Shown here piece by piece: positions 1,907 through 30,628 of a DNA stretch of 36,983 bases (its first letter is position 1; each line of letters starts with the position of its first letter). The position numbers were made by a program, and so were the translations under genes. Where the stretch lies: the IMG/VR virus record IMGVR_UViG_3300034158_000001. The stretch is one strand, 5' to 3'. Under the pieces are notes generated by a model, which was not told the DNA's origin, ran no database searches, and saw nothing but the letters and a program-made list of their open reading frames with translations. Origin of the DNA: an uncultured virus (IMG/VR IMGVR_UViG_3300034158_000001) (Duplodnaviria > Heunggongvirae > Uroviricota > Caudoviricetes).

Positions 1907-2127
1907 TGAAGTTTGGAGTTGAACCTTCAAGGGAATATATACAACAGTGGGCTGAAGGCGTGTACAACGTCTACCAGCCTCTGGCTTGGCAGTATGCAGC
2001 TTGGGCGTATTGGTACTTGGGCTATGACGACCCAATGATTAGTGCTGGAGATATCGTGACAAACGGTATGATTCAAAAAATCACGGATGCTTGCGTACTT
2101 CGACAAAAGGAGTTCGACAGTGAGTAA
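1906..2127 (+). CDS. hypothetical protein
   Basis: TAATG coupling to upstream gene. Confidence 0.65.
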   Translation: MKFGVEPSREYIQQWAEGVYNVYQPLAWQYAAWAYWYLGYDDPMISAGDIVTNGMIQKITDACVLRQKEFDSE

Positions 2128-2599
2128 CTTCTCTAATCTATTTGAAATCCGTGGGAGTAACCTTGTAAGAAAGGTCACAACCGGGGCAAGAGGTGTGGAA
2201 GGTTCTGTTGTTGGAACGCAAGTTAAAGGCTATCTTAGATTTGAACTCGGTGGTAGAACTTACGCCGTACACAATGTGATCTGGATGATCCACAACGGGC
2301 AAGAAATTCCTGATGGATACATTGTTGACCATGAAGACGGCGATCCCCTGAACAACGATCCAATGAATCTAAGGCTTGCAACAAAACCACAAAATGGTTA
2401 TAATGCAAAGCTCTATGTAAATAACAAGAGTGGCTTCAAAGGTGTGAGTTTCGATGTCCAAACTGGTAAGTGGGTTGCACAAATCCGCTTCGATGGTAAG
2501 AACAAGAAGATCGGTAGATTTTCAACACCTGAGCTAGCGAATGAGGCTTTGGTAAACATCAGAGCCGCACTGCACGGAGCATTCGCAAATGACGGATAA
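2120..2599 (+). CDS. HNH homing endonuclease with C-terminal AP2-like domain
   Basis: VDHEDGDPLNNDPMNLRLAT..QN HNH motif; NNKSGFKGV...KWVAQI..GK.K.IGRF.T.E.A AP2 motif; GTG start after AAGGAG. Confidence 0.88.
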   Translation: MSNFSNLFEIRGSNLVRKVTTGARGVEGSVVGTQVKGYLRFELGGRTYAVHNVIWMIHNGQEIPDGYIVDHEDGDPLNNDPMNLRLATKPQNGYNAKLYVNNKSGFKGVSFDVQTGKWVAQIRFDGKNKKIGRFSTPELANEALVNIRAALHGAFANDG

Positions 2600-3149
2600 C
2601 TATCAACCGTGGACAGAGTACCCCAACATCTGGAAAACTGAGGCGATGTATCTGAGCTGGATTCGTGGTGGAATCCGGCGATACCTCTGGTCTAAGAATC
2701 CAGTGAAGCTGGAGTTTGTCAAGTCTGCCCGCAAGATGATCACCAATCCTAATGTGAAACTCCGAAAGGGTAGACCAGAAGTTTGGGGAGGTATTTGCGA
2801 AATCTGTGGGAGAGAGCACCCTCTGAAGAATATGGAAGTTGACCATAAGTCTGGTGAGCACTCACTCAAGAAGGTGAGTGATATCCAGAAGTTTGTAGAG
2901 GGGATTGTGTTTATTCGCAAAGAGGATTTAGCCTTTCTCTGCAAGCCTTGCCACAAGATCAAGACCAATGCGGAGAGGAAAGGCTTGAGCCACGAAGACA
3001 GTGCTATCGATAAAGAAGCTATTGCTTTGATGAAGTTAACACCAGCCGAGCAGAAAAACTGGCTAAAAGATCGTGGTGTTGATAAGCCTGGAGTGAATGC
3101 AAAGATTCGCCGTGAGCAGGTAACTAATATTTTGAAGGAGGGTAGATGA
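2589..3149 (+). CDS. HNH endonuclease (Zn-binding CxxC...VDH...LCxxCH)
   Basis: CEICG, EVDHK and LCKPCHKIKT motifs. Confidence 0.8.
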   Translation: MTDNYQPWTEYPNIWKTEAMYLSWIRGGIRRYLWSKNPVKLEFVKSARKMITNPNVKLRKGRPEVWGGICEICGREHPLKNMEVDHKSGEHSLKKVSDIQKFVEGIVFIRKEDLAFLCKPCHKIKTNAERKGLSHEDSAIDKEAIALMKLTPAEQKNWLKDRGVDKPGVNAKIRREQVTNILKEGR

Positions 3150-5476: not shown

Positions 5477-6427
5477 ATGACCATCACAGCAAAAATTATC
5501 GCTCACTCGGTTTCACCGAACGGGCAGCAAATTGTCACATTCGAACTTGAGTATCCAAGATTCGTCCACTCTGAACTGATGACACATCGACTATTCTCTC
5601 GTAATGCAGCATCCAGTAGAGCTATTCCCGTAAAGAATATCATCGAACAAGTAAGAAACAGCCCTGCAATGCCCATACATTGGGGAGTAAACGAGCCTGG
5701 AATGCAAGCGTCCAATGTGCTGTCTGATGCTCTAACCGCATCCGCGAAGTACATCTGGAAGAAAGCAGCATATTCTGCTGCTGACTTTGCTGAATGCCTT
5801 GTGAAGATCGGGTTACATAAGCAGGCAACAAACCGCATCCTCGAACCCTTCCAGACAATGAAGACTGTGATGACAGCAACTTGTATGGACAACTTCTTCT
5901 GGCTGCGTAACCATGAAGACGCCCAACCTGAAATCAAAGAGCTTGCTCGTTTGATGTGGGAAAAGTTACAGGCAAGCACACCGTTTGAACTGGAGCCTGG
6001 GGAGTGGCATGTTCCTTATGTCCACACTACAAGATACTTCACAACAAAAGAGATTCAGTACTGGGACATGCGAGCTGCACAACAGCTTACGCTTGAAGAG
6101 GCTCTGGCTGTATCCTCAAGCTGCTGCGCTCAAGTGAGCTACCGTAAGCTGGATGATACGCTGGAGAAGGCTCAGATGGTGTATAAACGCCTTGTAGAGA
6201 GTGAGCCTGTGCATGCCAGCCCATTTGAACACCAAGCCACTCCTATGCTGAATCCTGAGTATGAGGCTATGTTGCTAAAGCGGTTTATGGACGACGAAGT
6301 TGGTTGCTTTGACGAAGGTGTAACACACACTGATCGTAACGGTAAGAACTGGAGTGGTAACTTTGTAGGTTGGGTGCAATTCAGACAATTGATTCCCAAC
6401 AACGTGTGTCATAAATATGAACCATGA
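5477..6427 (+). CDS. thyX: flavin-dependent thymidylate synthase
   Basis: ELMTHRLFSRNAASSRA ThyX motif, LRNHEDAQPEI, HASPFEHQA. Confidence 0.92.
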   Translation: MTITAKIIAHSVSPNGQQIVTFELEYPRFVHSELMTHRLFSRNAASSRAIPVKNIIEQVRNSPAMPIHWGVNEPGMQASNVLSDALTASAKYIWKKAAYSAADFAECLVKIGLHKQATNRILEPFQTMKTVMTATCMDNFFWLRNHEDAQPEIKELARLMWEKLQASTPFELEPGEWHVPYVHTTRYFTTKEIQYWDMRAAQQLTLEEALAVSSSCCAQVSYRKLDDTLEKAQMVYKRLVESEPVHASPFEHQATPMLNPEYEAMLLKRFMDDEVGCFDEGVTHTDRNGKNWSGNFVGWVQFRQLIPNNVCHKYEP

Positions 6428-6851
6428 TTACGTTGCTGGGCTATTTGATGGTGAGGGGTGCTTTGTTATAACAATCTCCAAGAACACTGGAAAGGTCCGT
6501 AGGCAGGATTTTTACTACAAAGCAGAAGCTGCCATCGAGATACGTGAAGAGTTTTTAGTAGATGCGTTGATCGGTCTTTACGGAGGCAACAAGACAAAGA
6601 AGGTGCCAAGGAAAGAAAATCACTCCACCACTTACAGATGGAAGATTAACGGTGAAAACTTAAAAGCCTTCTGTCAACACATGGACGGAAGGTTGATGCT
6701 CAAGACTGAGCAGTCTAAAGTGATTCTTGAATTCTTCAAAGTACGCGAAGGTAAGACAACAACTGCACTGACTGATGAGCAAATTGCAAAGCAATTGTAT
6801 CTGAGAGGTGTTATTATGAATTTGAACAAGAAAGGAGTTTCACATGGCTGA
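6417..6851 (+). CDS. single-motif LAGLIDADG homing endonuclease, free-standing
   Basis: YVAGLFDGEGCF; downstream Y.W.I.G and L.LK.EQ pattern. Confidence 0.85.
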   Translation: MNHDYVAGLFDGEGCFVITISKNTGKVRRQDFYYKAEAAIEIREEFLVDALIGLYGGNKTKKVPRKENHSTTYRWKINGENLKAFCQHMDGRLMLKTEQSKVILEFFKVREGKTTTALTDEQIAKQLYLRGVIMNLNKKGVSHG

Positions 6852-7182
6852 TTACGCACTGAGTTTCCACGACCTGATGATGGTTGATGGCTTTAAAGAA
6901 GCACACGATACACAGAACAAGAAAGTATTCGAAGCGATTCTACAGACGAATGGCTTTGAGGTGAGTTTGGGTTACGAGCTTGTAGCCTGCAACCACCGAA
7001 CAATCAACAAAATTGAGTACTACGGAATTCGTGTTGAAGGTTTTGAACGTACAGATAAGGCATGGATTGACACAGGATGTGCGAGCATGGAAGCCCAGAT
7101 CGAAGCAGCTAAAGACAAGAGCCTGAGACATACGCTACGTCAAATGAGTTATCAGGGTACACTAACTCCTATCAGTGAATAA
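6844..7182 (+). CDS. hypothetical protein
   Basis: AAGGAG RBS; lies between thyX and nrdB. Confidence 0.75.
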   Translation: MADYALSFHDLMMVDGFKEAHDTQNKKVFEAILQTNGFEVSLGYELVACNHRTINKIEYYGIRVEGFERTDKAWIDTGCASMEAQIEAAKDKSLRHTLRQMSYQGTLTPISE

Positions 7183-8249: not shown

Positions 8250-9976
8250 ATTACTCAGCACTGAGAAAACAACAGATTGAGGATGGAGTGTGCCCACCGT
8301 GGTACACTACCGGGGGTATCCAGTTGTTCTACGACAAGTACTCGTACAACAATGAAACAGTTAAGAGCCGCTTCCGTGCAGTTGCACGGGCGCTGGCACA
8401 GCACGCTCCTGAAAGTTACCCTGAGTGGTGGAACGCCAACCCATACTGGGCAGGGAAGACTTGGGAAGACGCATTCTACCAGACGATGTGGGACGGTTTT
8501 ATCAGCCCCTCCACTCCGCTCCTTGCTAATGGTGGCCTGCGTCATCGTGGCACGACTGTAAGCTGCGCTGGTGGTAACGTTGGCAATAGCCTGGCAGATC
8601 GTTATGACTTCTTAACAGAAGCTGCCATCCTGACGAAACACAGCCATGGTACAAGTTACTGTATTGATGACTGGCCTGCCGAAGGTGATAAGATTCGTGG
8701 TGGACGTTCCCAGGGTGTGATGCCTTTGATTCGTGACATCATCAACGTGATGGAGGAAGTGGCTCAAGGTCCACGACGCGGGAGTTGTGCATACAGCTTA
8801 AGACCACAACACGGTGACTTTGATAAGGTGGCTGATTACCTATATGAGCGTACCGAGAGTAACAATGTTGGTTGGCTGATCGATGATGAATTTATCGACC
8901 TTATGGAGGAAGAAGACCCAGAGGCTCTACGCAAGTTTGCTAAGATGCTTGGGATTAAGATGCCACGTGGTAAGGGCTACTTTTCGTTCATTGACAAGAT
9001 GAACCGCAGGCTGGCTAAAGCCTTTAAGCGAGCTGGAAGACGTGCTCGTGCATCAAACCTGTGCCAAGAGACAAACTTGATTGCAGATGATGACTACACA
9101 TTTAGTTGTGTTATCCTCAACTATAACCTTGAGCTGTACCGTAGCTGGCCTGAACACCTTGTGTTTGTTGGTCAAGTTATGAGTGATTGTAACGTAAGTG
9201 AATATATTGAGACGATGGAGACCACGCTGTCTAAGAAAGACTTGAGAGCAATGGAGAAAATCCTACGCTTTACCAAGGAATTCCGTGCACTGGGTTCTGG
9301 CGTTCTGGGGCTACACACCCTGTTCCAGGCTGAGATGTTGTCTGTCTCTAGCATGGAAGCCATGATGTTGAACACAAAGATTTTCCGTGGCATCGAGAAG
9401 GATGCAATCTCGGCGAACTCTTGGCTGGCAGTTACTATGGGAGAGCCTGTAGGCTGTGCAGGGCTTGGACAACGCAATGCTACAATGCTGATGATGCCTC
9501 CTACCAAATCAACCGCTGAGTTGATGGCAGGAGCTTCTGAGGGTATTGGCCTGGACGTTGCCATGTGCTTCACCAAACAATCCGCTGGTGGTGAATTCTT
9601 CCGCATCAACAAAGTGCTGTTAGAGCTGATCAAGAGAAAAGGGTTAGACATCAGTCAATGTGTCAAAGACATGAACTCCCAAAAAGGTTCTGTACAACAC
9701 GTAAGCTGGCTGAGTGACGAAGAGAAGGCTGTATTCAGAACAGCATTTGAGATTCCAATGGAAGATCACTTGCGTCTGTGTTCCCAACGTCAGAACTACA
9801 TCGACCAAGGTCAGAGTATTAACCTCTACTTTACGTCGAATGACACACCAGAGTATATTGGCAAGATTCACCGTATCGCTTTTGACGATCCAAATATCCT
9901 GTCTCTGTACTACATCTATTCCATGAGAAATAGTGGAGAGATTACAAGAGTTGTGGAGTGTGCCGTGTGCCAGTGA
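8246..9976 (+). CDS. nrdA: class I ribonucleotide reductase alpha subunit (no ATP cone)
   Basis: SPSTP, VSC, RRGS, SNLCQE, PTKST, IDQGQSINL, LYY and C-terminal CAVCQ. Confidence 0.93.
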   Translation: MNYSALRKQQIEDGVCPPWYTTGGIQLFYDKYSYNNETVKSRFRAVARALAQHAPESYPEWWNANPYWAGKTWEDAFYQTMWDGFISPSTPLLANGGLRHRGTTVSCAGGNVGNSLADRYDFLTEAAILTKHSHGTSYCIDDWPAEGDKIRGGRSQGVMPLIRDIINVMEEVAQGPRRGSCAYSLRPQHGDFDKVADYLYERTESNNVGWLIDDEFIDLMEEEDPEALRKFAKMLGIKMPRGKGYFSFIDKMNRRLAKAFKRAGRRARASNLCQETNLIADDDYTFSCVILNYNLELYRSWPEHLVFVGQVMSDCNVSEYIETMETTLSKKDLRAMEKILRFTKEFRALGSGVLGLHTLFQAEMLSVSSMEAMMLNTKIFRGIEKDAISANSWLAVTMGEPVGCAGLGQRNATMLMMPPTKSTAELMAGASEGIGLDVAMCFTKQSAGGEFFRINKVLLELIKRKGLDISQCVKDMNSQKGSVQHVSWLSDEEKAVFRTAFEIPMEDHLRLCSQRQNYIDQGQSINLYFTSNDTPEYIGKIHRIAFDDPNILSLYYIYSMRNSGEITRVVECAVCQ

Positions 9977-10503
9977 TGGAAATTTGGGTTGATGTGAAAG
10001 GCTATGAGTCTTTCTATCAAGTCAGCAATATGGGTAACGTGCGGTCGAAAGATCGCACAGTTGCTTGTAAGCGGCTTGGCACTAAGAATCTTCGTAGTCG
10101 TCCACTAAAGGCAACAGTGGACAGTGTAGGCTACTGCAAGGTGACTCTGCAAGACCAAGGTCGCAATGTCGTGTGGAAAGTACACCGTCTTGTGGCTGAA
10201 CACTTTATTGACAAAGTTGAAGGCAAGGGTATTATCAACCACATTGATAACAACAGGGCCAACAACAAAGTTGATAATATTGAGAAGTGTACTCCAAAGG
10301 AGAACACTTCTCATATGCACTCGCAAGGCAGAAATTACTCTGCTTCGGGTGAAGACAACCCAGCTTGCAAGCTTTCTGACTCTCAGATTAAAGAGATTAT
10401 GGATTTGAAAGGTAAGCTGAGTCAGTCTAAAATTGCTGGTATGTATGGCGTGTCCCGACAACATATCGGTAAAATTCACAACGGGGCAAGGAGAACAAAA
10501 TGA
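9976..10503 (+). CDS. NUMOD4-HNH homing endonuclease with C-terminal HTH
   Basis: EIWVDVKGYE.FYQVSNMGNVRS, VHRLVA..F, INHIDNNRANN, SQSKIA..YGVSR. Confidence 0.88.
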   Translation: MEIWVDVKGYESFYQVSNMGNVRSKDRTVACKRLGTKNLRSRPLKATVDSVGYCKVTLQDQGRNVVWKVHRLVAEHFIDKVEGKGIINHIDNNRANNKVDNIEKCTPKENTSHMHSQGRNYSASGEDNPACKLSDSQIKEIMDLKGKLSQSKIAGMYGVSRQHIGKIHNGARRTK

Positions 10504-17857: not shown

Positions 17858-18250
17858 ATGGCTGTTAAACGCCCATTCAACATGACCGAGAACGAATTCG
17901 ACCTGTATGCTGCAAAGCATCTAGTGTGGAAAGCAGAGAACGCTAAGAAGCGTGGTATCGAGTTCACCTTGACCCACACTTCGATGAAAAATCTGCTGTC
18001 TTCCAAGAAGTGTTTCTACACTGGTATTGGCCTCACTAAGAGCACTGGCAAGGAAGAGGAGTTGAAGCTGAGCGACTTTACCATTGATCGAATTGACGGC
18101 TCCAAGGGTTATGTGAAGGGCAATGTGGTAGCTTGCTGCCACGCTGCAAACCAGATGAAGAACCAATTTGAGTCTCTGGGCTTGACAGGTCTCAAAGCTG
18201 GGCGTAACATCTTCGACAAAGCAATCAAACGAATTGAGGGTAAAAAGTAA
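17858..18250 (+). CDS. T4 Srd-like / degenerate HNH-fold protein
   Basis: AKKRGIEFTL, KKCFYTG, TIDRIDGSKGYVKGNVVACC..AN. Confidence 0.65.
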   Translation: MAVKRPFNMTENEFDLYAAKHLVWKAENAKKRGIEFTLTHTSMKNLLSSKKCFYTGIGLTKSTGKEEELKLSDFTIDRIDGSKGYVKGNVVACCHAANQMKNQFESLGLTGLKAGRNIFDKAIKRIEGKK

Positions 18251-20279: not shown

Positions 20280-20473
20280 TCAGCTATGAAGACAAAATTA
20301 CTGATAACCAAGTGGTCTGGGTCAAAGTAAAGTGGTTAAAGAAGGAGATTGGACGAATCTACAAAGAGTGTGGACACTTCCACTACCGGCCCCGAGGTTG
20401 TGAAGGTAAGATTCGTAGTGAAGAGTTCGCATCACTAACCGCATTGAAACGTTATTTGGAGGGTGAAGAGTAG
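20276..20473 (+). CDS. hypothetical protein
   Basis: ATGA overlap. Confidence 0.65.
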   Translation: MISYEDKITDNQVVWVKVKWLKKEIGRIYKECGHFHYRPRGCEGKIRSEEFASLTALKRYLEGEE

Positions 20474-20946
20474 TGAGGGGTATCAGCAAGCACAGATTAT
20501 ACGCAATCTGGGGTGCTATGAATGTTAGATGTTACAGCCCAGCTTATAAGCAATTGGATGATTACGGTGGTCGTGGCATAGGTGTTTGTGAGAGATGGCG
20601 ACACCCGTCACATGTAGGTTTTATAAACTTTCTCAAAGATATGGGAGACCGGCCCGAGGGCTATACCCTGGATCGAAGGGATAATGATAAAGACTACTCA
20701 CCAGAAAACTGCCGTTGGGTTGAAAGACGTGTACAAGGTTTCAACCGACGACACTCCAAACCTGGAAAGGTTACACCTATGGGAGTCCTTTGGAGTAAAG
20801 GAATGAAACAGTGGCAAGCTTATTATACCTTTAAGTTGGAAGGTAAGAGTAACACTCACATACTTGGCTATAGTCCTGACTTGTTTGAGGCTATCTGCAT
20901 GCGTAAATCCTGGGAGGAAAGTGCGGGTACTTACTTTTCAGGCTAA
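20473..20946 (+). CDS. HNH-type homing endonuclease
   Basis: RLYAIW.AM..RCY, YGGRGI.VCERW, FLKDMG.RP.GYTLDR.DN.K.YSPENCRW. Confidence 0.82.
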   Translation: MRGISKHRLYAIWGAMNVRCYSPAYKQLDDYGGRGIGVCERWRHPSHVGFINFLKDMGDRPEGYTLDRRDNDKDYSPENCRWVERRVQGFNRRHSKPGKVTPMGVLWSKGMKQWQAYYTFKLEGKSNTHILGYSPDLFEAICMRKSWEESAGTYFSG

Positions 20947-28646: not shown

Positions 28647-28910
28647 ATGATCTTCGCAACTGTTCTTAGCCTGTGCATGTCCGCATCATACAGCGATTGT
28701 AACGACTATATTGTCGACGTCGCCCCAACAAGCAAAGACTGTAAAGTCAACCTTATCGAGCACTCCAAGCGTATGACTAATGTGTGGAAGCTCGACAGCG
28801 GCAAAGCGTTGGATGTGTTCTTGAAAGAGTTTCACATTGTAGAACAAGTCGAGGATATCGCAAGCTACGACTACACCTGTCAGCCCATTGCTGATAAGGA
28901 TGTTCCTTAG
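28647..28910 (+). CDS. YebW/DUF1482-like small Cys protein
   Basis: MIFATVLSLC.....DC.DYIVDV......C...C pattern. Confidence 0.55.
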   Translation: MIFATVLSLCMSASYSDCNDYIVDVAPTSKDCKVNLIEHSKRMTNVWKLDSGKALDVFLKEFHIVEQVEDIASYDYTCQPIADKDVP

Positions 28911-28932: not shown

Positions 28933-28954
28933 GCCCGCCATGAGCGGGCCTTTT
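28933..28954 (+). terminator. intrinsic terminator
   Basis: GCCCGC-CATGA-GCGGGC-CTTTT. Confidence 0.78.
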
Positions 28955-29013
28955 CATTCCCACCAACATGAGCTAAATTCAAGTTGCTTGCTGTGAACAT
29001 GAATCTAATTCGT

Positions 29014-29042
29014 TTGACAGGTTTTCATTCGCACGGTACAAT
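29014..29042 (+). promoter_or_regulatory. sigma70 promoter pointing into the non-coding region
   Basis: TTGACA-N17-TACAAT. Confidence 0.7.
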
Positions 29043-29060
29043 ACCTTAAGAGCTTTACCT

Positions 29061-29798
29061 TTAAGCGACAGCTTAAGGAAGTAATCCGATAGCTATAAAA
29101 CATAATAACAAAACTCCTAAAGAATATCAACCCATAGCTTCGCTATAAGGGATTAAACCTTATGACCTTCGGTCATGTAGTTTGCACGGATCAAAAAGCG
29201 ATAGCTTTTGTGGTTATCAATTGTAAAATATCTATAACATAAACCCCTAAAAACTATCTCAAAACCTAAGCCAAGGCTTAGAAGGTTAAACCCTCAGACC
29301 GAAGGTCTAAGAAGGTCAAGAGCGGGCTGTAAGCCCCGTATTACAAGCGTTAGAGGCTATCCTACCCAATGCTACGCATTGAAGAGAAAACCCCTCAAAT
29401 CAACGCTAAACCCCTTTCTAGCTCTCTGCCTCGCGTGGGTGAGCCCCGTTAGGGGCGAGACACTAAGCGAAGCGCTCTCACTTTCAGTGAATTGTCAAGA
29501 ACTTCCTTAGATCATTACGCTATGTCCTACGGACAAACAGTTCTAACACCATGAGGGCAAATCCTCCCCAGTTGGCACACTTCTAGCAAGGCATATTGCA
29601 TGCCAGGAATATCACCCCTAGAGGGACAACCCCCATGGGCATGCTCGCCCTATGCACACACCCCTAACATGAATAACTCTCATGAGAGAATGAATCACAC
29701 ATGACAATACATCCTATGTGCGAGCAGTCCTACATGTTAATCATTCTCATGTGTGCATACGCACAAGTACAGAGCCACACGCTCTAATGCGAAGCATT
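29061..29798. repeat. array of short inverted repeats with GNA/GNNA loops
   Basis: 9 GAA/GTA-triloop and 3 C-GNNA-G hairpins in an ORF-free region (listed in findings). Confidence 0.85.
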
Positions 29799-29871
29799 GA
29801 AAGGCTAGCCCCTGGAGGGTGATACACACTCATGAGGATAGACCCTTGCCGGTGTGACCCTTTGAGGGAGA

Positions 29872-29887
29872 TGTTCCACGTGGAGCA
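29872..29887. promoter_or_regulatory. parS-like palindrome
   Basis: TGTTCCACGTGGAGCA, 15/16 to TGTTCCACGTGGAACA. Confidence 0.55.
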
Positions 29888-30139
29888 AATCTCTTTTATG
29901 GTGGAACGTTTGATGGGGCGAGCCCTCCCTAATAGGATTGATTCCCCTATGGGAGTGACTTTCCAATGAGAAGTGTTCTCGTTATTTTAGAATTACGAGC
30001 GGCCAGCTAGTGGGCCTTGTGTTGTCGTTAAGCACCTCTCGCTCAAAACTGGCTCCGCCACATCCCTTTATATTTTCCTATGTCAAGGTGGAACACTCCG
30101 TCAAGTGGTGTTTATTTTTGGCGGCGGGATTTATTTTGG

Positions 30140-30168
30140 TGGACAAAATGTTGGTAGTATTGTAGAAT
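30140..30168 (+). promoter_or_regulatory. sigma70-type promoter
   Basis: TGGACA-N17-TAGAAT. Confidence 0.6.
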
Positions 30169-30214
30169 TAGTAAAGGAGATACATACACTAAACCCCTAT
30201 AGGGAGATTAAACA

Positions 30215-30628
30215 ATGGCAACAATTGATGAACAGTACACACTAGTTTCGCAGCTTGGCATTTACGGTGCCATCAACCAGGGTGCGTTTCAAAACACCCT
30301 TGATGGTAAAGATGCTCCGCCAGCTTTCCATATCGTACACAGAGGAAGCATGGCTACCTTCACCCCTTCTGAAAGTGATAATGGTGCATACACTGTGTTT
30401 GACTACGCAGGTGATATGGTGATTACACTTCCAGCTTCGCTGTCTGCACCAGAGCTAAACCCATTTACAATGTTTGTAGTTAACACCCTTGGAAGGATTG
30501 ACTTCGTGTGCGAGACTCCCTTCATTGGGTATGCTCCTCACGTTGAGCAGAATGTTACATGTGGATTACTGAGAGGTATGACCAACTGGTATGCTTCAGG
30601 GACAAACAACAAAGCAGAGCTTAGCTAA
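30215..30628 (+). CDS. hypothetical protein, tail-fibre-tip-like beta domain
   Basis: GGGAG RBS; T.T.S.SDNG....F......ITLPA.L pattern. Confidence 0.6.
   Translation: MATIDEQYTLVSQLGIYGAINQGAFQNTLDGKDAPPAFHIVHRGSMATFTPSESDNGAYTVFDYAGDMVITLPASLSAPELNPFTMFVVNTLGRIDFVCETPFIGYAPHVEQNVTCGLLRGMTNWYASGTNNKAELS

Follow-up and report, generated by a model that had tools for sequence, protein, structure and literature searches.

The window analyzed here, the whole stretch of 36,983 nucleotides of an uncultured tailed virus (IMG/VR record IMGVR_UViG_3300034158_000001; Caudoviricetes), contains a gene-free stretch of about 1.2 kb that carries a dense array of short inverted repeats, termed mini-hairpins below. 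No open reading frame (ORF) of at least 60 amino acids lies in 29001-30214, in agreement with the ORF-free region described by an earlier, sequence-only reading of the window. Judged by its matches, the window belongs to a phiPsa374-like Otagovirus, a virulent Pseudomonas myovirus of about 98 kb. The 1.3-kb stretch that holds the array matched Otagovirus phages exclusively, and in relatives' records with defined ends it aligned at the right end, where the direct terminal repeat is annotated. The assembly is evidently closed through a single copy of this repeat. The nearest record, G001 (97% identity over the region), was used in place of the window's own genome. PHROG matches in the window to ribonucleotide reductase, thymidylate synthase, an exonuclease and several HNH endonucleases fit the right arm. 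In phiPsa374 the left arm lies on the minus strand and the right arm on the plus strand, both arms being read towards the ends, and no RNA polymerase is annotated. The whole window gave no match to Rfam at gathering thresholds, no transfer RNA gene was found in it, and a Pfam search of 11 neighboring window proteins returned nothing relevant.

Every hairpin listed in the sequence-only reading was present at its position (Table 1). That reading had proposed that the three-nucleotide loops (triloops) always read GAA or GTA on one strand, and all eight perfect triloop stems of at least 5 bp in 29043-29800 were of the GNA type, a loop that reads TNC being GNA on the other strand. The central loop base was A in five of them and T in three. 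The proposed GNNA tetraloops were likewise found (GACA at 29061, GATA at 29194 and GTTA at 29443) and made up three of five tetraloop stems; the other two, with CAAG at 29266 and ATAC at 29752, break the rule. Closure was mostly by C-G, as had been stated, with six of the eight triloops closing in this way and those at 29324 and 29478 closing with T-A. The core GCG(N)NAGC is found in exact form at 29065, 29137, 29198, 29371, 29467 and 29789. When the hairpins were aligned on their loops, no shared flanks or stem positions were found among them, and their spacing, judged by eye, had no clear period.

The number of such hairpins greatly exceeded that in shuffled sequence. In 5000 dinucleotide shuffles the mean was 0.71 triloop stems (maximum 5) and 0.086 GNA-type stems (maximum 3), compared with the eight GNA-type stems observed. 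When three- and four-nucleotide loops were pooled, 11 of 13 were GNA or GNNA on one strand (G..A-type below), and a count of 11 was reached in none of 2000 shuffles. Outside the ORF-free stretch, 5 of 52 triloop stems in the window were GNA-type, about the chance rate of 1/8. Across the whole phiPsa374 genome 22 of 144 triloop stems were GNA-type: five clustered at 97399-97831, two lay at the left end (at 58, in the second copy of the repeat, and at 607), and the remaining 15 were dispersed over about 96 kb, roughly as expected by chance. GNA-type stems were present in the homologous stretch of all 12 relatives' loci examined. The hairpin cluster is specific to the terminus. Predicted DNA folding of 29120-29545 was far better than that of shuffled sequence on both strands (z = -5.1 and -4.8), under standard folding parameters, which miss mini-hairpin stability (PMC13037366).

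Ten helices, defined on the window, were scored over an alignment of 12 genomes. The sequence-only reading had held that structure rather than sequence is selected, and compensatory stem changes across these genomes bore this out. Covariation was evident as changes on both sides in 28 of 52 pairs, with the observed score reached in none of 500 shuffles, although these figures overstate independence, the structure having been taken from one member of a set of related sequences. Paired cells amounted to 80.3%, as against 27-50% after partners were slid by one to three columns. Loops of the G..A-type on one strand accounted for 33 of 40 distinct triloop variants and 17 of 31 distinct tetraloop variants. 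At orthologous slots the loop was either kept or exactly inverted (GTA to TAC or GAA to TTC, and the reverse). This switching between a loop and its reverse complement is a signature of hairpin inversion in DNA, after which one of the two strands still has a G..A loop. The slot at 29523 was on the minus strand in 11 of the 12 genomes. Some slots never flip, the loops at 29194 and 29324 being always on the plus strand, so orientation may matter at some sites. A variant strain, represented by assembled contigs and metagenome runs, differed by 10 substitutions and 2 indels and had its hairpins intact; about 1.3 hits were expected by chance, so this comparison is uninformative. In two metagenome runs the sequence of the variant diverges upstream of 29013.

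Homology to the repeats annotated in relatives (510-529 bp) upheld the earlier placement of the array near the genome termini and made it more precise: the left end falls 1 nt before an invariant GCGAAGC, and most of the array lies just inside the right repeat copy. The ends of the phiPsa group were mapped by PhageTerm (PMC9796965), and the repeat starts of phiPsa374, 267, 300 and 315 fall in one alignment column, equivalent to window position 29466, with which phiPsa347 agrees. The putative physical left end is thus at 29466, CTA|A-GCGAAGC. The sequence CTAAGCGAAGC was invariant in all 12 aligned genomes, and, of the 16 relatives' loci that extend to the site, 15 contain the exact heptamer GCGAAGC; the Kremar record ends before it. 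The right boundary reads ..CGTT|AAGCACCTCTCGC in the window by alignment, compared with ..TGGTT|AAACACCTCTCGC in phiPsa374 and ..TGGTT|AAGTAGC in the Pakpunavirus phage C11, which gives a probable terminal repeat of 564 bp (29466-30029).

The only hairpins inside this repeat are those at 29467, 29478, 29523 and 29786. The portion of the array at 29061-29456 is just upstream of the left boundary of the repeat and, in the virion, would lie one repeat length inside the right end. Altogether, about ten inverted repeats occupy the approximately 400 bp upstream of the left boundary and the first 70 bp of the repeat, with one more at 29786; on the evidence of the alignments, they are kept by selection.

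The same layout, an array followed by a G..A-loop hairpin at the left boundary of the repeat, was common to Otagovirus, Pakpunavirus and Nankokuvirus. The large terminase of phiPsa374 shares about 70% identity with its Pakpunavirus counterpart and about 61% with the one in Nankokuvirus. In the Pakpunavirus C11 the genes are arranged in the same way and the repeat measures 1173 bp; 13 of 19 stems in the interval 92400-93150 of C11 were G..A-type. Its repeat start, bench-mapped by fill-in, ligation and polymerase chain reaction (PMC5175280), is gttaag|CGACAGCTTA and falls within the 5' arm of TAAGC-GACA-GCTTA. The sequence AACCCCTTTCC, like the invariant motif at 29406 in the window, lies upstream of the repeat in C11 and in PaP1. 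In the Nankokuvirus RP8, eight G..A stems were found in 600 bp, mapping to record ends and annotated repeats of Ab03, Ab17, G1 and others. The Ab03 cluster (712-1120) stops 57 nt before the annotated repeat start ttca|AGCCATTGG, and the start itself, at ca|AGCCATTG, forms CAA-GCCA-TTG, a 3-bp stem with a GNNA loop. TGTCAAG lies 21 nt inside the Ab03 repeat, as in Otagovirus. The G..A loop of the terminal hairpin is on the plus strand in all three genera. For six regions in the three genera, the observed G..A counts were reached in none of 2000 shuffles, the regions outside the window having been picked after their clusters were seen. G..A hairpins also follow the left repeat, at 607 in phiPsa374 and at 1367, 1470 and 1628 in C11.

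Table 1. Features of the terminus region, in window coordinates; loops are written as read on the strand given.
Feature	Position	Strand	Remarks
Terminator-like hairpin GCCCGC-CATGA-GCGGGC, then T-run	28933..28949	+	After the last right-arm gene (28647-28910)
Sigma-70-like promoter TTGACA-N17-TACAAT, directed into array	29014..29042	+	11/12 consensus matches
TTAAGC-GACA-GCTTAA (GNNA)	29061..29076	+	Core TAAGC-GACA-GCTTA is the repeat-boundary hairpin of Pakpunavirus C11 and PaP1
ATAGC-GAA-GCTAT, core GCGAAGC	29134..29146	-	Slot at alignment columns 59-62; relatives have GTA on + strand
ATGACC-GAA-GGTCAT	29162..29176	-	Mini-hairpin
AAAAGC-GATA-GCTTTT	29194..29209	+	Helix 3; GNNA on + strand in 11/11 stems of at least 5 bp at this slot (GATA, GTAA, GTTA)
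CTAAGCC-AA-GGCTTAG (equally a CAAG tetraloop)	29266..29281		Relatives' triloops here: GAA, TAC or TTC
AGACC-GAA-GGTCT	29296..29308	+	Helix 5
GGGCT-GTA-AGCCC	29324..29336	+	Helix 6; GTA on + strand in 12/12 rows; perfect 5-bp stem in 5/12
CAATGC-GTA-GCATTG	29367..29381	-	Helix 7; relatives have GATAGC-GTA-GCTATC on + strand, two have the non-rule loop ATC
Invariant motif CTAAACCCCTTTC	29406..29418	+	12/12 genomes (columns 300-312)
GCCCC-GTTA-GGGGC	29443..29456	+	Variable slot; phiPsa300 and phiPsa347 have AGTGAGGC-GAA-GCC(C)TCACT
Left-end site CTA|AGCGAAGCG	29463..29474	+	Putative end 29466; mini-hairpin core GCGAAGC at 29467-29473
TCACT-GAA-AGTGA	29478..29490	-	Window and G001 only; window alone among the 12 rows of alignment A2
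Conserved TTGTCAAG	29492..29499	+	TGTCAA invariant in 12/12 rows
TGTCC-GTA-GGACA	29523..29535	-	Helix 10; 57 nt inside repeat; stem covariation (TGACC/GGTCA, AAGTCC/GGACTT)
AATGC-GAA-GCATT, core GCGAAGC	29786..29798	+	Mid-repeat; common to PPSC2 and G001
Putative direct terminal repeat, 564 bp	29466..30029		By homology; one copy in assembly

The GC-rich stem and T-run at 28933 were present in all eight rows of a second alignment (A1), and the equivalent site was flagged in phiPsa374. The sigma-70-like promoter lies within an insertion of about 137 bp (approximately 28960-29096; A1 columns 76-212) found in the window and G001 only; the hairpin at 29061 begins 19 nt after this promoter and is part of the same insertion. 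At the slot of the 29296 hairpin, relatives carry AAACC-TAC-GGTTT, AAAGC-GTA-GCTTT, AAACC-TTC-GGTTT or TTGAAC-TGTC-GTTCAA. A separate family of palindromes, CCCCT-N(1-3)-AGGG, occurs within or just past the repeat at 29614-30208 (ACCCCTAGAGGGAC, GCCCCTGGAGGGTG, ACCCTTTGAGGGAG and ACCCCTATAGGGAG). The last of these overlaps the ribosome-binding site of the gene at 30215, and the repeat of phage T7 holds a similar palindrome, CCCCC-ATA-GGGGG. The repeat of phiPsa374 contains three direct copies of TATATAGTGCAACGGTAAT (locus L005, approximately 1950-2230; A1 columns approximately 815-1085), which could be protein-binding or promoter sites; none occurs in the repeat of the window. A related strain in two peat metagenome runs has a 27-nt insertion at 30039, 10 nt past the probable right boundary of the repeat.

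Other observations concern neighboring genes and the other genera. The first gene after the repeat, 30215-30628, had no PHROG or Pfam match, and its only relatives in the phage collection were in PPSC2 (59% identity) and the N4-like phage LUZ7 (41%; "tail protein" in one record). Six HNH-endonuclease-like genes are found among the nucleotide-metabolism genes (2087-3149, 6417-6851, 9958-10503, 17858-18250 and 20473-20946). One HNH-like gene lies between two thymidylate-synthase-like ORFs (5477-6427 and 6844-7182), and the protein of 17858-18250 also matches endonuclease VII, Srd and sigma-decoy PHROGs. Pakpunavirus repeats hold an HNH endonuclease gene (C11, locus L022, 330-932; PaP1, locus L025, 90879-91481), whereas the Otagovirus repeat is gene-free. 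In Nankokuvirus (PAK_P3, locus L029, 62480-63740) the genes flanking the terminus are co-directional, unlike the convergent arms of Otagovirus and Pakpunavirus. In PAK_P3 a single stem, GGCTTC/GAAGCC, recurs with the loops GTA, TAC, TTC and GTC.

The sequence-only reading had argued that the array works at the level of DNA. This was supported by the strand symmetry of the loops, their exact inversions, tetraloops outside the RNA rule GNRA and terminator-like sites that bracket the region. The tetraloops were GATA, GTTA, GACA and GCTA, with GTAA alone fitting GNRA, and GTTA together with the whole GNA class are DNA mini-hairpin loops (PMC13037366). On either side, terminator-like sites separate the last genes from the region (28933-28949 in the window; locus L005, 1376-1395, and locus L014, 646-624, in phiPsa374). 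Among 64 triloops, only GNA forms mini-hairpins, which are exonuclease-resistant and poorly bound by single-stranded DNA-binding protein (SSB) (PMC13037366). The loop rule and the C-G closure of the GCGNAGC and GCGNNAGC class were both found in the window, and if its mini-hairpins fold as members of this class do, they would be unusually stable and nuclease-resistant as single-stranded DNA.

As our best explanation, held tentatively, the array could well be a DNA-level, structure-coded part of the concatemer-junction or terminus region. Its position at the end and the repeat fits a role in left-end formation and in the handling of the repeat, and the data suggest that the phage uses shape in addition to sequence when marking or handling the ends of its DNA. 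Candidate functions named in the sequence-only reading were end protection, a decoy for DNA sensors, a priming or packaging signal and an injection pause. The elements would act as DNA, folding when the junction is opened. Opening might come about by torsional stress, as with the N4 promoter hairpins; by nicking and strand-displacement synthesis that duplicates the repeat in the manner of T7; or by resection or incomplete lagging-strand synthesis that leaves the repeat as a single-stranded tail. Both opened strands would then snap into mini-hairpins, poorly bound by SSB and resistant to exonucleases, which would fix the limit of the opened stretch at the repeat's edge. Terminase, or a nuclease working with it, would also be offered the cut site T[A/T]|A-AGC, beside a G..A hairpin. 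The new 5' end would be capped by the terminal GCGAAGC, whose G..A loop is on the strand that carries that end.

A stronger form of this proposal, which we consider speculative and on balance unlikely, is a structure-coded phage "telomere." Here, the left-end enzyme would read an extruded G..A mini-hairpin and not a fixed sequence, the array would serve as a strand-separation or torsion device for duplication of the repeat, and the locus would nucleate an early fold of the type reported for PAK_P3. An enzyme that reads hairpin shape would explain why the terminal hairpins differ in the three genera (GC-GAA-GC, TAAGC-GACA-GCTTA and CAA-GCCA-TTG).

Several observations weigh against a terminus function encoded in hairpin structure. 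Most of the array is located one repeat length in from the right end, and the left end lacks it, so it cannot be a simple end cap. With a terminal stem of just 2 bp in Otagovirus and 3 bp in Ab03, cutting could be accounted for by a simple sequence site, TAAGC. In the twin-domain model, convergent transcription gives positive supercoiling, and cruciform extrusion would thereby be disfavored between the two arms. The loop rule is broken by 7 of the 40 distinct triloop variants and 14 of the 31 tetraloop variants, including AAA, ATC, GCT, GTCC, CTGA and GGAC. The right boundary of the repeat reads TT|AAG or TT|AAA, and no hairpin was found there. The exact A|GCGAAGC end depends on the PhageTerm runs of a single study, and in UNO-G1W1, mapped by an independent nanopore pipeline (PMC11256812), the end is offset inwards by 12 nt. 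In phage 16Q the site reads GCGAAAC, a change that disrupts the mini-hairpin. In PaP1, which has the same hairpins as C11, the start would lie 8 nt 5' of the hairpin if the last 1190 nt are the redundancy. The choice of the shuffled regions in the other genera after sight of their clusters tells in the same direction.

Among the alternatives, single-strand initiation (ssi) or origin signals fare best, although we consider this account doubtful. In this model the mini-hairpins mark primase or primase-helicase starts on exposed strands, either priming synthesis beside the repeat or serving as an origin unwinding element; such a role has been proposed for the complementary-strand origins of G4, St-1 and alpha3 and for ssiA of RSF1010. 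The sequences GCGAAAGC and GCGTTAGC occur at primase start sites and CCGAAGG occurs in ssiA, and mini-hairpins bind SSB poorly (PMC13037366). The window contains CC-GAA-GG cores at 29162 and 29296 and the GTTA loop at 29443, the spacers between hairpins are AT-rich and conserved, the cumulative GC skew turns near 28.5-29 kb, and a primase/helicase gene is annotated in the C11 record. However, the skew turns where gene orientation switches, and the array flanks the repeat on a single side. No larger ssi-like fold and no DnaA-type repeats were seen, no search aimed at them having been made. Further, the loops lie on both strands and invert between relatives, yet the lagging-strand template is one strand, and a primase role of the mini-hairpin is described as unproven even for G4 (PMC13037366).

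It is improbable that the array acts as an exonuclease barrier, in which the repeat is expendable, the row of hairpins, formed on unwound or resected strands, shields the unique genes from attack at the right end, and GCGAAGC protects the left 5' end. Mini-hairpins resist exonucleases and are used for oligonucleotide protection (PMC13037366), the array does lie between the right repeat and the last genes, and the left repeat, too, is followed by one to three G..A hairpins in phiPsa374 and C11. However, duplex DNA ahead of a nuclease would contain no hairpins, and the asymmetry is strong, with about ten hairpins on the right and one to three on the left. To our knowledge, RecBCD-like helicase-nucleases do not stop at 5-bp hairpins, which also counts against a barrier.

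Quite improbable, too, is a genome-organizing locus, at which hairpin or cruciform DNA is bound by a protein of the phage or its virion, or by an SMC-like factor of the host, that folds or anchors the genome at an early stage of infection. For PAK_P3, a preprint based on Hi-C (10.64898/2025.12.15.694284) describes, at 3 min, a hairpin-like fold of 14 kb located within 45-75 kb; its tip consists of two gene-less sequences that are untranscribed at 3.5 min. The homologous hairpin cluster of PAK_P3 is at 62480-62714, and 62818-63738 is the sole large gene-less gap in 52-72 kb. The preprint does not state where the tip lies, so its coincidence with the hairpin cluster is conjectural. No candidate binding protein emerged, and the Pfam search of the neighboring window proteins was uninformative.

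We give little credence to a role in RNA, either as stem-loops that end or stabilize transcripts from both arms or as a structured non-coding RNA transcribed from the 29014-29042 promoter. The stems would form equally well in RNA, in this lineage a strong sigma-70-like promoter is directed towards the array, and a few hairpins with T-rich runs were flagged as terminator-like (29149-29131, minus strand, in the window; locus L005, 1439-1453 and 1589-1572, in phiPsa374). However, the hairpin at 29149-29131 was the only one of the window's mini-hairpins to be so flagged, canonical terminator-like sites precede the array on both sides, and the promoter insertion is limited to the window and G001. 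The loop rule is strand-symmetric, holding for GNA or its complement, which is not expected from selection on RNA; the composition of the tetraloops and the lack of an Rfam match in the window argue in the same direction. The fold-tip sequences of PAK_P3 that were untranscribed at 3.5 min would also speak against RNA if they do coincide with the hairpin region.

It is very improbable that the array consists of selfish palindromic mini-repeats, similar to repetitive extragenic palindromic (REP) elements, that have piled up in a gene-free region: the stems differ from one another, they cluster at the terminus and are not dispersed above chance elsewhere in the 98-kb genome, and their slots are orthologous across genera with compensatory change. 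Promoters of the N4 type, read by a hairpin-recognizing RNA polymerase, are close to refuted. The array does match them in geometry (stems of 5-7 bp, three-nucleotide loops with a sheared G.A pair, C-G closure; PMC4496689, PMC13037366), but the hairpins have no shared flanks, both orientations and no downstream genes, and neither a gene of virion-polymerase size (largest coding sequence in phiPsa374, 2478 nt) nor PF00940, the T7-type RNA polymerase domain, was found (phiPsa374, C11 and G001 searched for PF00940; T7 control positive).

No prior description of these terminus mini-hairpins was found in the literature, supplements and subscription journals being outside the scope of the search, and hairpins go unmentioned in the papers on phiPsa374, PaP1 and C11. 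The choice of ends and the duplication of the repeat in phages with exact direct terminal repeats are poorly understood outside T7, and the array offers a conserved and easily mutated cis-feature exactly at the step of end formation in three genera. These genera include candidates for phage therapy and biocontrol (PAK_P1-, KPP10- and phiPsa374-like phages). The motif CTA|AGCGAAGC together with the array allows the true ends to be placed from sequence in circular or metagenomic assemblies of the group. If the favored terminus function is correct, this would be the first case found of DNA mini-hairpins acting at the genome end of a double-stranded DNA phage, and the second natural setting, after N4, in which hairpins of 5-6 bp work within duplex DNA.

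Among known systems, the early promoters of N4 resemble the array in that they are short GNA-loop hairpins near the genome end of a double-stranded DNA phage. N4 hairpins this short extrude from duplex at a superhelical density of -0.035 with Mg2+, and SSB spares the strand with the G..A hairpin (PMC4496689). The analogy to N4 promoters drawn in the sequence-only reading nevertheless failed on shared sequence, orientation, downstream genes and polymerase. N4 has three promoters on one strand, conserved from -17 to +1 (-10G, -8G and +1C), upstream of early genes and served by a 3500-amino-acid polymerase. Here, in contrast, about ten hairpins lie on both strands without shared flanks, downstream genes or such a polymerase. 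N4 promoters also need A or G at -11 (PMC4496689); the N4 geometry is present in the window, but the central loop base is T in three of the eight triloops. The absence of a T7-type polymerase domain from phiPsa374, C11 and G001 and of a gene of virion-polymerase size from phiPsa374 likewise indicates that these are not N4-type promoters.

With T7 the phage shares a direct terminal repeat, unique ends and cis-elements just left of the repeat in the junction. By homology, the non-permuted genome, the exact direct terminal repeat and an element at the junction are all present. In T7, processing is tied to the phage's own RNA polymerase, through a promoter and a pause at the junction; the phages considered here lack such an enzyme, no PF00940 polymerase having been found in phiPsa374, C11 and G001. 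The repeat of T7 itself contains one hairpin of the mini-hairpin type, GTCAACC-TTC-GGTTGAC, and no array, and no link between T7 ends and mini-hairpins was seen. A hairpin DNA form was reportedly proposed in a 1990 paper on T7 as an intermediate in duplication of the terminal repeat. The injection-stop region of T5 and cosQ of lambda are non-coding end regions rich in repeats and palindromes, which serve DNA entry in T5 and termination of packaging in the case of cosQ. We know of no use of GNA mini-hairpins by either.

The closest structural likeness is to the d(GCGAAGC) and d(GCGNNAGC) mini-hairpins of Hirao and colleagues, with which the array shares the GNA/GNNA loop rule (GTTA, for example) and C-G closure. 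The natural contexts named for such hairpins in the available part of a 2026 review are the primase sites of G4, St-1 and alpha3, ssiA of RSF1010 and the N4 promoters (PMC13037366). Unlike those contexts, the array described here is a conserved row of mini-hairpins at the end repeat of a double-stranded DNA phage, with the genome end itself beside the motif.

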